Part shown: one piece after another, positions 6,677 through 10,191 of the stretch
Layout: each line of letters begins with the position of its first letter
Numbering within the stretch: the first letter of the stretch is position 1
Assembly: GCF_048403405.1 (NCBI RefSeq)
Contig: NZ_CP183129.1
Reading direction: 5' to 3' (one strand)
From: Escherichia coli
Lineage (GTDB): Bacteria; Pseudomonadota; Gammaproteobacteria; Enterobacterales; Enterobacteriaceae
Length of the DNA: 64,000 nucleotides
Position numbers and translations under genes: made by a program
The notes under the pieces: model-generated
The model's input: the letters and a program-made list of their open reading frames with translations, nothing else
The model's database searches: none
What the model was told of the DNA's origin: nothing

Positions 6677-8779
6677 ATGAAGATTTTTTCCGTCCGACAG
6701 ACCGTTTTGCCCGCACTGCTTGTCCTTTCCCCCGTTGTTTTTGCCGCTGATGAACAGACCATGATTGTCAGTGCCGCACCGCAGGTGGTTTCAGAACTGG
6801 ATACCCCAGCAGCCGTGAGCGTGGTGGATGGCGAGGAGATGCGCCTGGCAACACCGCGCATTAACTTGTCCGAATCACTGACCAGCGTGCCTGGTTTGCA
6901 GGTACAAAACCGGCAGAACTATGCGCAAGATTTACAGCTGTCGATTCGCGGATTTGGCTCCCGCTCCACTTACGGAATTCGCGGTATTCGCCTGTATGTG
7001 GACGGTATTCCCGCCACCATGCCCGACGGACAAGGGCAAACATCCAACATCGATTTAAGCAGTGTACAAAATGTGGAAGTGCTGCGCGGCCCCTTCTCTG
7101 CTCTGTATGGCAACGCGTCTGGCGGTGTAATGAATGTCATCACCCAGACCGGACAACAGCCACCAACCATTGAAGCCAGTAGTTACTACGGCAGTTTTGG
7201 CAGCTGGCGCTATGGGCTGAAAGCAACAGGCGCAATGGGCGACGGCACTCAGCCTGGCGATGTCGATTACACCGTCTCAACCACGCGCTTTACGACCCAC
7301 GGCTATCGTGATCATAGTGGCGCACAGAAAAATTTAGCCAATGCCAAACTGGGCGTACGCATTGATGACGCCAGCAAATTAAGCCTGATTTTCAATAGTG
7401 TGGATATCAAAGCAGATGACCCAGGTGGGCTAACCGAAGCAGAATGGAAGGCGAATCCGCAACAAGCGCCACGCGCTGAACAGTACGACACGCGAAAAAC
7501 CATCAAGCAAACTCAGGCTGGGTTGCGCTATGAACGTAGCCTGAGCGCACAAGATGATATGAGTGTGATGATGTATGCCGGGGAGCGAGAAACGACCCAG
7601 TACCAGTCAATCCCGATGGCACCACAACTTAACCCGTCGCATGCGGGCGGCGTGATTACTCTGCAACGCCATTATCAGGGGATAGACAGCCGCTGGACAC
7701 ACCGTGGCGAGCTGGGCGTTCCGCTCACGTTCACTACCGGCCTGAACTACGAAAACATGAGTGAAAATCGCAAAGGCTACAATAACTTCCGCCTGAATAG
7801 CGGCGTGCCGGAATACGGGCAAAAAGGTGAGTTGCGCCGTGACGAACGCAATCTGATGTGGAACGTCGATCCCTATTTGCAGACACAGTGGCAGCTGAGC
7901 GAAAAACTGTCGCTGGATGCTGGCGTGCGCTACAGCTCCGTATGGTTTGATTCCAACGACCATTACGTTACTTCGGGTAACGGCGATGACAGCGGTGATG
8001 CCAGTTATCACAAATGGCTACCTGCCGGTTCGTTAAAATATGCAATGACCGATGCCTGGAATATCTATCTGGCAGCCGGGCGAGGTTTTGAAACGCCGAC
8101 GATTAATGAGCTGTCTTATCGTGCTGACGGTCAAAGCGGTATGAACTTTGGTTTAAAACCATCCACCAACGATACAATTGAGATCGGCAGTAAAACGCGT
8201 ATTGGTGATGGGCTGCTTAGTCTCGCATTGTTCCAGACCGACACCGATGATGAAATTGTAGTCGATAGCAGTAGCGGTGGGCGTACGACTTACAAAAATG
8301 CCGGAAAGACCCGTCGTCAAGGCGCTGAGCTGGCATGGGATCAACGTTTCGCGGGAGATTTTCGTGTAAAAGCGTCCTGGACCTGGCTCGATGCGACCTA
8401 TCGCAGCAATGTTTGCAATGAACAGGATTGTAACGGTAATCGGATGCCAGGGATCGCCCGTAATATGGGCTTTGCGTCGATAGGTTATGTACCGGAGGAT
8501 GGCTGGTATGCAGGTACGGAAGCGCGTTATATGGGCGATATTATGGCAGATGATGAAAATACGGCCAAAGCGCCGTCTTATACTCTCGTCGGCTTATTCA
8601 CCGGGTATAAATACAATTACCACAATTTAACTGTGGATTTATTTGGTCGTGTCGATAATTTATTCGATAAAGAATACGTTGGTTCTGTCATTGTCAATGA
8701 GTCAAACGGGCGATATTACGAACCTGCGCCCGGGCGAAATTATGGTGTCGGCATGAATATTGCATGGCGATTTGAGTAA
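6677..8779 (+). CDS. yncD: TonB-dependent outer membrane receptor YncD
   Basis: Track ORF 6518..8779; start trimmed to ATG 6677 (MKIFSVRQTVLPALLVLSPVVFA signal peptide), 700 aa; C-terminal ..AWRFE with terminal aromatic residue typical of beta-barrels. Confidence 0.9.
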   Translation: MKIFSVRQTVLPALLVLSPVVFAADEQTMIVSAAPQVVSELDTPAAVSVVDGEEMRLATPRINLSESLTSVPGLQVQNRQNYAQDLQLSIRGFGSRSTYGIRGIRLYVDGIPATMPDGQGQTSNIDLSSVQNVEVLRGPFSALYGNASGGVMNVITQTGQQPPTIEASSYYGSFGSWRYGLKATGAMGDGTQPGDVDYTVSTTRFTTHGYRDHSGAQKNLANAKLGVRIDDASKLSLIFNSVDIKADDPGGLTEAEWKANPQQAPRAEQYDTRKTIKQTQAGLRYERSLSAQDDMSVMMYAGERETTQYQSIPMAPQLNPSHAGGVITLQRHYQGIDSRWTHRGELGVPLTFTTGLNYENMSENRKGYNNFRLNSGVPEYGQKGELRRDERNLMWNVDPYLQTQWQLSEKLSLDAGVRYSSVWFDSNDHYVTSGNGDDSGDASYHKWLPAGSLKYAMTDAWNIYLAAGRGFETPTINELSYRADGQSGMNFGLKPSTNDTIEIGSKTRIGDGLLSLALFQTDTDDEIVVDSSSGGRTTYKNAGKTRRQGAELAWDQRFAGDFRVKASWTWLDATYRSNVCNEQDCNGNRMPGIARNMGFASIGYVPEDGWYAGTEARYMGDIMADDENTAKAPSYTLVGLFTGYKYNYHNLTVDLFGRVDNLFDKEYVGSVIVNESNGRYYEPAPGRNYGVGMNIAWRFE

Positions 8780-8786
8780 TTACCTT

Positions 8787-8810
8787 GATGCCCGGTATTT
8801 GCCGGGCATT
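8787..8810 (+). terminator. hairpin downstream of yncD stop (could alternatively be the IS200 left subterminal hairpin)
   Basis: GCCCGG-tattt-GCCGGGC followed by ATTTAATT. Confidence 0.4.
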
Positions 8811-8883
8811 TAATTGTGCACAGAAAACCCCCAGCTAGGCTGGGGGTTCCGGAAAGCTTTCAGCTTTAAGCCAGTTATTAAAA

Positions 8884-8952
8884 CCCCTTTTGATTTGTTA
8901 AAACACCTTGCGGTCTGGCAACTGCAAGTGTCAAACAAGAAATCAAAAGGGG
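8884..8952 (+). promoter_or_regulatory. RBS-sequestering stem-loop of IS200 tnpA
   Basis: CCCCTTTTGATTT (8884-8896) is the exact reverse complement of AAATCAAAAGGGG (8940-8952); the right arm covers the AAGGGGG Shine-Dalgarno 7 nt before ATG 8959. Confidence 0.7.
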
Positions 8953-8958
8953 GTCCCA

Positions 8959-9417
8959 ATGGGGAACGAAAAGAGCTTAGCGCACACCCGATGGAACTGT
9001 AAATATCACATAGTTTTTGCGCCAAAATACCGAAGACAGGTGTTCTACAGAGAGAAGCGTAGAGCAATAGGCAGTATTTTGAGAAAGCTGTGTGAGTGGA
9101 AAAGTGTACGGATTCTGGAAGCTGAATGCTGTGCAGATCATATCCATATGCTTGTGGAGATCCCGCCCAAAATGAGCGTATCCGGCTTTATGGGATATCT
9201 GAAAGGGAAAAGCAGTCTGATGCTTTACGAGCAGTTTGGTGATTTGAAATTCAAATACAGGAACAGGGAGTTCTGGTGCAGAGGGTACTACGTCGATACG
9301 GTGGGTAAGAACACGGCGAAGATACAGGATTACATAAAGCACCAGCTTGAAGAGGATAAAATGGGAGAGCAGTTATCGATTCCCTATCCGGGCAGCCCGT
9401 TTACGGGCCGTAAGTAA
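8959..9417 (+). CDS. tnpA: IS200 transposase TnpA (Y1 HUH transposase)
   Basis: Track ORF 8908..9417 trimmed to ATG 8959: MGNEKSLAHTRWNCKYHIVFAPKYRR...; HxH motif (HIHML) and catalytic Tyr region (RGYYVDTVG); 152 aa. Confidence 0.9.
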   Translation: MGNEKSLAHTRWNCKYHIVFAPKYRRQVFYREKRRAIGSILRKLCEWKSVRILEAECCADHIHMLVEIPPKMSVSGFMGYLKGKSSLMLYEQFGDLKFKYRNREFWCRGYYVDTVGKNTAKIQDYIKHQLEEDKMGEQLSIPYPGSPFTGRK

Positions 9418-9498
9418 CGAAGTTGGATGCAAATGTCAGATCGTGTGCGCCTGTTAGGGCGCGGCTGGTAAGAGAGCCTTATAGGCGCATTTGAAAAA

Positions 9499-9517
9499 CC
9501 TCCGGCTATGCCGGAGG
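9499..9517 (-). terminator. rho-independent terminator of mcbR
   Basis: CCTCCGGC-ata-GCCGGAGG followed on the minus strand by TTTTTC, 9 nt past the mcbR stop. Confidence 0.6.
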
Positions 9518-9525
9518 ATATTTAT

Positions 9526-10191
9526 TTAACGATTGTATTGCTGGTATAAAATAGCAATATTTTGTTGCATAATTTCAGCAAGACAATGTCTGCATCCCTC
9601 TTTGTCTTTTGCTTTTAACGCGGCGAGTAATAGACGATAGTTTTCTATACGTTCCCGTAATTCCGCTGGATTAATCGCTTCATAAAGATAATGTAAACCA
9701 GGTCCCATCCTGACCCACAGTTGCTCAATCATCTCACACAGGATGGGCATATTTGAACGATGATAAATTGCTAAGCGAAATAGCCTGTTCGCATTAATGA
9801 TTTGTTCCATGTCGCCCTTTTCTTGCGCCTGCTGTAATTTCTCGAGCAATTCCTCGAGTTCCGCCAGGTCTTGCGAGGTGAGGTTTTCAACAGCCAGAGT
9901 AACTGCCATTAATTCCAGCTCGTAGCGGATCCGATTGATTTCGTCTAATTGACGTTTCCCCACTTCCGGAACTGTAAATGCTTGCGCTGGTGCGACAGAA
10001 AGCGCATTCACCGAAACCAGACGTAATAATGCTTCACGCACAGGTGTAATACTCATACCTAATTGCTCCGCCAGATTTTTAGTAATCAGGCGTGCGCCAG
10101 GTTTTAGTGCGCCAATACTAAGCTGATGTTTCAGGTCATTCTCAACCTGCAGAGTCAAACTGACATGTTTCATTTTTTCCGTTCCAGGCAT
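9526..10191 (-). CDS. mcbR: GntR/FadR-family transcriptional regulator McbR (YncC)
   Basis: Track ORF 9526..10248 trimmed to ATG 10191 (MPGTEKMKHVSLTLQVEN..), 221 aa; N-terminal winged HTH; K-12 synteny. Confidence 0.9.
   Translation of the reverse strand: MPGTEKMKHVSLTLQVENDLKHQLSIGALKPGARLITKNLAEQLGMSITPVREALLRLVSVNALSVAPAQAFTVPEVGKRQLDEINRIRYELELMAVTLAVENLTSQDLAELEELLEKLQQAQEKGDMEQIINANRLFRLAIYHRSNMPILCEMIEQLWVRMGPGLHYLYEAINPAELRERIENYRLLLAALKAKDKEGCRHCLAEIMQQNIAILYQQYNR

Follow-up and report, generated by a model that had tools for sequence, protein, structure and literature searches.

An insertion stands between pqqU (formerly called yncD) and mcbR in this Escherichia coli chromosome, and the locus raises the question of which element it is, where exactly it begins and ends, which of the hairpins beside it belong to it and how it came to lie there. 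The window, i.e. the whole stretch of 64,000 nucleotides that was analysed, contains a single copy of an IS200C-like element, at positions 8816-9526. We consider it very probable (about 95%) that this is a complete, apparently functional copy of IS200C on the plus strand, which was integrated once and inherited clonally since, both neighbouring coding sequences being intact. IS200C is the E. coli member of the IS200 group, within the IS200/IS605 family. The neighbouring genes and the features of the element, apart from those of its left end, are as follows.

6677-8779, plus strand: pqqU (yncD), TonB-dependent receptor gene, upstream of and co-oriented with tnpA (RefSeq annotation of the 100%-identical locus L002)
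8788-8809: chromosomal hairpin ATGCCCGG-tatttg-CCGGGCAT, not part of the IS (8-bp perfect inverted repeat; empty sites)
8810-8815, plus strand: T-rich tail TTAATT (TTACTT in empty sites), the target tract, with the IS directly 3' of the last TT (empty-site alignment)
8816-9526, plus strand: IS200C, complete, 711 bp, GTGCACAG...GGATATTTATT
8959-9417, plus strand: tnpA, intact, 152 aa, Y1/HUH transposase with HIH motif and C-terminal YI tyrosine (NF033573)
9446-9489, plus strand: internal inverted repeat TGCGCCTGTTAGG / CCTTATAGGCGCA between the tnpA stop and the right-end hairpin (13-nt arms, 85% complementary)
9499-9517: right-end subterminal hairpin CCTCCGGC-tat-GCCGGAGG, with extended arms at 9494-9522 (inverted-repeat search)
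9518-9526, plus strand: right-end tail ATATTTATT, ending in the putative right cleavage site (cleavage logic of PMC3201880)
9526-10191, minus strand: mcbR, intact coding sequence, whose stop TAA (9528-9526) abuts or overlaps the right end of the IS (ORF list, RefSeq annotation)

Identity and ends of the element

An IS200-type element had been recognised here in an earlier note on the same DNA, and comparison with annotated genomes bears this out. Many complete E. coli genomes match a query of 751 nucleotides with 100% identity; between pqqU and mcbR, PGAP annotates in them an 'IS200/IS605-like element IS200C family transposase'. The 711 nucleotides of the element itself were 100% identical to copies carrying the TnpA WP_000526135.1, also named IS200C by PGAP. 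The name used here rests on this PGAP/RefSeq naming and on PMC6963479, where the same insertion is called IS200C in the IS table for the ST38 strain 28Eco12; the insertion is thus already catalogued, and the element is an ordinary one of the IS200 group. It is very improbable that another member of the family, such as IS1541 or a different iso-form of IS200, occupies the site. IS1541A from Yersinia pestis does align over the full length (87.4%), and the remaining copies in 28Eco12 reach no more than 96-97% identity and bear a generic annotation, but neither observation outweighs the complete identity over 711 nt to PGAP-named IS200C copies and the published naming of exactly this insertion.

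The organisation of the element is that of the IS200 group. Within about 0.7 kb (711 bp), tnpA is the sole annotated gene and tnpB is missing; the termini (GTGCAC.../...TTTATT) are not inverted repeats of each other, and subterminal hairpins are present at both ends. The region 8780-9530 has one substantial open reading frame on the plus strand, from the ATG at 8959 to 9417, and its 152-aa product matches the NCBIfam equivalog NF033573 (transpos_IS200, 'IS200/IS605 family transposase') with 147.7 bits against a cut-off of 55 (1.9e-43). The protein also matches the solved Y1 transposases 2ec2, 2f4f, 2a6m (IS608 TnpA, 3.9e-19) and 2xm3 (ISDra2 TnpA); its HIH motif and C-terminal tyrosine align with those of the solved enzymes, giving the combination of HUH motif and single catalytic tyrosine that defines the Y1 class.

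The ends of the element, which had been regarded as uncertain, were fixed by comparison with empty sites and with other copies. In K-12, which has no IS at this position, as the earlier note had said, the stop codons of mcbR and pqqU are 35 nt apart and the alignment shows a single inserted block of about 711 nt. When the joined flanks (8716-8815 plus 9527-9626) were searched against all complete genomes, the best empty sites, including that of E. coli 042, matched without gaps at 99.5%, the sole difference being a C in place of the A at 8813. The empty site reads GGGCATTTAC-TT|TAACG and the filled site GGGCATTTAA-TT[GTGCAC...ATATTTATT]TAACG. Apart from the one flanking substitution, the filled site is the empty site plus 711 nt, so the expectation that this family makes no target duplication is upheld.

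Fourteen further copies were compared, thirteen from E. coli (on chromosomes, in a prophage and on a plasmid) and IS1541A on the Y. pestis plasmid pMT. All of them share exactly the sequence GTGCAC...GGATATTTATT (...TTTATT), which is always preceded by TT on the left and followed by variable sequence on the right. According to the rule established for IS608, the last bases of the element form the right cleavage site, and the target stays in place to the left of the element (PMC3201880); applied to the shared sequence, this rule places the ends at 8816 and 9526 and gives a length of 711 bp. By the same rule, the TT found on both sides in 14/14 copies would be the target TT on the left and the terminal TT of the element on the right, and not a duplication. 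In PMC6963479 the insertion is listed as 2442570..2443280 of NZ_CP038505, which corresponds to window positions 8815-9525 and agrees within one base. The limits proposed previously, 8811-9520, were off by 5-6 nt at each end. The locus offers a worked example of how IS200 ends can be fixed from empty sites.

Two hairpins next to the genes could then be assigned. The first, at 8788-8809, is unchanged in the empty sites of K-12, locus L003 and E. coli 042, and because every empty site has it, it is chromosomal and represents the shared 3' hairpin of the convergent genes pqqU and mcbR. This settles a point that the earlier note had left undecided, namely whether a hairpin seen at 8787-8810 belonged to yncD or to the IS; the insertion lies directly past the T-rich tail.

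The second hairpin was assigned the other way. The structure at 9499-9517 had been taken for the terminator of mcbR, and it does exist: its core occupies 9499-9517, its extended arms pair 9494-9506 with 9510-9522, and it is terminator-like on both strands. A reading in which the IS stops before 9499 and mcbR keeps a native terminator has in its favour that the hairpin is placed directly 3' of the gene and that, on the mcbR strand, its 8 bp (7 of them G-C) are followed by TTTTT. No such hairpin occurs between the closely spaced stop codons of the empty sites in K-12, L003 and E. coli 042, and an identical one closes every other IS200C copy and IS1541A at unrelated loci. Because it is missing from the empty sites and present in all 14 copies elsewhere, the structure is the right-end hairpin of the IS, and the alignment with empty sites refutes a native terminator.

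The two end hairpins are alike (left, GAAAA-CCCCCAGC-tag-GCTGGGGG; right, GAAAAA-CCTCCGGC-tat-GCCGGAGG), a likeness that would be expected for two binding sites of one transposase (PMC3201880). The internal inverted repeat at 9446-9489 is conserved in Y. pestis IS1541A. A match to the Rfam family Ysr202 on the minus strand (9494-9593) was rejected as a chance or terminator match: its score of 30.5 bits falls far short of the gathering threshold (315), and the alignment takes in nothing but the terminator-like right-end hairpin.

The element has entered within the stop codon of mcbR (TT|T AACG on the plus strand), where its final T, at 9526, restores TTA, so that mcbR still ends in TAA. The 3' flank of the gene has been replaced completely by IS sequence. 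Past the stop codon, empty sites have the chromosomal hairpin and then CAAGG, without a U tract on the mcbR strand, and the filled site has CCTCCGGC-ata-GCCGGAGG-TTTTTC. The right-end hairpin, a canonical hairpin with U5, probably now terminates mcbR. The annotation of the hairpin adjacent to mcbR should be corrected to IS-derived, which is relevant to studies of mcbR 3' ends or McbR levels in ST38.

Left-end structures and silencing of tnpA

When nt 1 of published IS200 is set at position 8815, the published landmarks coincide with the features observed at the left end.

8826-8848, plus strand: left-end perfect palindrome, the terminator inverted repeat of published IS200 nt 12-34 (inverted-repeat search, folding; PMC4513863)
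8853-8867, plus strand: small second hairpin AAAGCT-ttc-AGCTTT at the reported tnpA start (Rfam STnc490 helix; centroid fold)
about 8854: tnpA transcription start, published about nt 40 (PMC4513863)
8884-8952, plus strand: 5'UTR stem-loop whose 13-bp basal stem hides the Shine-Dalgarno sequence (inverted-repeat search, folding; PMC4513863)
8883-8952: position of the published Shine-Dalgarno-sequestering inverted repeat, nt 69-138 (PMC4513863)
8947-8954, plus strand: Shine-Dalgarno sequence AAGGGGGT of tnpA, within the 3' arm of the stem, upstream of the ATG at 8959
8967/8968: art200 5' ends, published nt 153/154, at the end of codon 3 (PMC4513863)
8879-8968, minus strand: predicted art200 (STnc490) antisense RNA, a stem-loop followed by UUUU (coordinates from PMC4513863)

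The arms of the palindrome (8826-8835 and 8839-8848) are 10 nt each, 100% complementary and separated by a loop of 3 nt; in the 64-kb window the 23-mer is found a single time, and in none of 100 shuffles. A perfect palindrome had been noticed at 8828-8846, which corresponds to the inner 8 bp of this structure: its existence stands, and its extent has to be enlarged by two pairs. The stem proposed to occlude the Shine-Dalgarno sequence (8884-8896 with 8940-8952) was recovered as such by both inverted-repeat search and folding, with 13 perfect base pairs, or 16 nt at 94% when taken as 8884-8899 with 8937-8952. Folding of the RNA 8816-8975 reproduces the stem and the palindrome structures at -60.5 kcal/mol (z = -5.26), and 0 of 200 shuffles were as stable. 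The Shine-Dalgarno sequence is identical to the published AAGGGGGU (PMC4513863), and the two left-end structures do match those reported for IS200 silencing, as had been claimed (PMC4513863).

In the Salmonella system, the stem, the antisense RNA art200 and Hfq have each been found experimentally to block 30S binding to tnpA, and the left-end palindrome, reported as a bidirectional terminator against read-in, to guard against impinging transcription (PMC4513863). These silencing functions come from the literature and are assigned to the copy in the window because its sequence is the same as in that system. As in Salmonella IS200, the palindrome would terminate transcription arriving from upstream, here from pqqU, the 5'UTR stem would conceal the Shine-Dalgarno sequence, and art200 would act as an antisense RNA starting at the third codon, all three serving to keep tnpA silent. 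As modelled, tnpA would be doubly insulated at this locus, transcription from pqqU meeting the chromosomal hairpin and then the IS palindrome. By analogy within the family, the palindrome may also be the left subterminal hairpin that is bound by TnpA in single-stranded DNA (PMC3201880).

On the minus strand, folding of the region 8968-8872 gives a stem-loop with UUUU after it (-35.5 kcal/mol, z = -4.66), and the predicted fold suits an antisense RNA of about 90 nt that ends at its own terminator. The scan for sigma-70-like promoters found none for tnpA or art200 at its threshold in 8600-9800, which agrees with the 'weak/undefined promoter' described for IS200 (PMC4513863). A putative art200 promoter may be seen on the minus strand, with a -35-like TTTACA (9003-8998) and a weak -10-like TAAGCT (8979-8974), together 8/12 matches.

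The Rfam family RF01405 (STnc490) matches 8826-8949 over 124/124 model positions, with 146 bits against a gathering threshold of 56. This match lies on the tnpA-sense strand and begins at the terminator palindrome, and STnc490/art200 is described as antisense (PMC4513863); the match marks the locus and not the transcript. It was observed in addition that both the strand and the limits of the RF01405 model differ from the mapped transcript, which is antisense and is described as starting at nt 154 and reaching back to about nt 65. The 5'UTR stems are invariant among 15 copies including Y. pestis IS1541A, so a covariation test is uninformative either way.

The same left end bears on whether the copy is a silent passenger. 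An sRNA derived from 5'tnpA, art200 or the right-end terminator might regulate the host or alter McbR levels. In favour of such effects, the 5'UTR and the antisense region have the same sequence and the same fold as in the characterised system, invF and further regulons are regulated by 5'tnpA in Salmonella (PMC5435999, PMC12594629), and the 3' flank of mcbR is wholly replaced. Against this, invF and SPI-1 are absent from E. coli, no E. coli target is known, and the genome has about 9-12 such copies, so that one more adds little dosage. We regard a regulatory role for this copy as rather improbable, and a copy silenced as in Salmonella is the reading retained.

Target choice and history of the insertion

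In analogy with IS608, IS200C would have integrated as a single-stranded circle directly 3' of ..CTT in the T-rich tail; the empty target reads GGGCATTTACTT|TAACG, the tail that follows the shared pqqU/mcbR hairpin. The transposition route through a single-stranded circular intermediate is transferred from IS608 (PMC3201880). Whether such a tail was met by chance can be judged from the other copies. Left flanks were examined in the window (8788-8815) and at loci L005-L007, L009-L016 and L018. All 14 independent IS200C/IS1541A copies start within the T tract of a GC-rich hairpin, 5-7 nt beyond its foot on the 3' side; folding of the left-hand 40 nt gives a mean energy of -16.9 kcal/mol, that of the right-hand 40 nt -6.6. 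Wherever a gene is annotated immediately upstream of the left end, tnpA has the orientation of that gene; examples are yncD/pqqU, araE, nuoN, fdnI, kdsA, icd, cof, brnQ and others.

The element thus seems to target structures that resemble intrinsic terminators and not just T-rich DNA. The stricter rule, that IS200C and IS1541 integrate specifically in the T tract 5-7 nt 3' of intrinsic-terminator hairpins and in the orientation of the terminated gene, is put forward tentatively, with a low probability. Chance landing in AT-rich intergenic DNA, with no structural targeting, is improbable. PMC6963479 describes the sites only as 'T-rich regions', and an A-rich guide 5' of the left hairpin might by itself explain a T-run target (PMC3201880); the regular spacing from a GC-rich hairpin in 14/14 copies, the difference in fold energy between the two sides and the uniform co-orientation with the upstream gene speak against chance, as does a preprint in which terminator-like sequences are enriched upstream of IS200/IS605 elements (10.1101/2025.07.22.666184). 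In the more recent literature considered, the rule appears only in statistical, family-wide form, in one 2026 preprint, and no claim of novelty is made.

Two possible bases for a preference for terminators may be proposed. The host 'hairpin + T-rich tail' might mimic the right end of the element itself; alternatively, TnpA might dock on the host hairpin, with the GAAAA guide 5' of the left hairpin reading the T tract. The GAAAA tract 5' of both hairpins sits where the guide sequences of IS608 sit. Under either mechanism, the element would always land in a transcriptionally insulated spot. Here integration also rebuilt the mcbR stop codon and probably supplied mcbR with a new canonical terminator. 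The pattern is a candidate for a systematic census, the 5,426 genomes holding roughly 13,000 IS200-like left junctions.

Two side observations concern location and orientation. Strain 28Eco12 (NZ_CP038505.1, 3058443-3061129) has a pair of equally oriented IS200C copies separated by 1.6 kb, one by icd and one near ymgL, each following a near-identical hairpin (AAACGGGCG...CGCCCGTTGTTT); the two target hairpins look like duplicated sequence. In the window, GC skew is negative over almost the whole length (1-64000), and the locus is near the replication terminus (K-12 1.52 Mb). With this negative skew, the plus-strand tnpA appears head-on to replication, an orientation that would run counter to the lagging-strand-template bias reported for the IS200/IS605 family (PMC5027513).

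The filled site was found in 141 of 5,426 complete E. coli genomes with a 200-nt left-junction query (coverage >=80%), and the K-12 empty-site query covered 5,255 of the 5,426; at least 2,056 genomes have a full-length IS200C-like copy somewhere. The genomes with the filled site include 28Eco12 and 266917_2, both of which are ST38 (PMC6963479), and the 30 filled-site matches listed are 100% identical over 751 nt. Position 8813, 3 nt left of the IS end, is A in filled sites and C in every empty site; no empty site with A and no filled site with C was found in the 5,426 genomes, the best being 99.5% and 98.8%, respectively, with one mismatch each. The C-to-A change might be either a SNP linked to the insertion or a by-product of the integration itself.

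The distribution is consistent with a single integration in an ancestor of a lineage that includes ST38, followed by clonal inheritance. The insertion is a clean lineage marker, present in 141/5,426 complete genomes, all with the linked A at 8813. A shorter, 80-nt left-junction query had returned 422 genomes at >=80% coverage, and the excess over 141 was rejected as a sign of wider occupancy: it consists of IS200 copies elsewhere whose flanking hairpins look alike (88-90% identity), with no pqqU under the match.

Three further observations concern the species as a whole. Some E. coli genomes (H152, H154) have 27-36 IS200-like places against a median of 2, which suggests that an element generally regarded as almost immobile has expanded in particular lineages. 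In E. coli E2348/69 (B2; NZ_CP059840.2, 2527677-2528441), the neighbour of pqqU is annotated as a GntR-family pseudogene, incomplete in sequence. In about 1,040 genomes the identity to the K-12 empty site is only 80-90%, and mcbR appears to have been degraded or replaced across much of the species.

Comparison with known IS200 and IS608 systems

Among the closest known systems is IS200 of Salmonella enterica (707 bp; work of Beuzon/Casadesus and Ellis/Haniford, PMC4513863). Both elements have a single tnpA, the terminator palindrome at nt 12-34, the stem at nt 69-138, the Shine-Dalgarno sequence AAGGGGGU and the art200 start at nt 153/154, all of which coincide when nt 1 is set at 8815. The element in the window differs in being the E. 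coli iso-form IS200C, with 711 bp. This comparison rests on the published coordinates and on the Rfam STnc490 model, which was built on the Salmonella left end; among the plasmid matches sampled, none was a Salmonella IS200 copy.

Other E. coli copies of IS200C are 96-100% identical over 711 nt and have the same ends and the same kind of target; only the location described here is specific to a lineage. IS1541A of Y. pestis, 87.4% identical over its full length, has identical left and right hairpins and an identical Shine-Dalgarno stem, and is likewise inserted 3' of a hairpin and T tract. It differs in its host and by many synonymous changes in tnpA; conservation is higher at the non-coding ends than in the coding sequence.

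IS608 of Helicobacter pylori serves as the mechanistic model (PMC3201880, PMC5027513). It shares with IS200C a Y1/HUH TnpA, subterminal hairpins at both ends, the lack of inverted terminal repeats and of target duplication, and a position 3' of a short target, which becomes the left flank. In contrast to the element in the window, IS608 carries tnpB, targets TTAC and has its left cleavage site 19 nt from the foot of the hairpin, whereas IS200C is devoid of tnpB, has a spacer of 10 nt (8816-8825), lies in the T tract of a terminator-like hairpin as its target and has the A-rich tract GAAAA before both of its hairpins.
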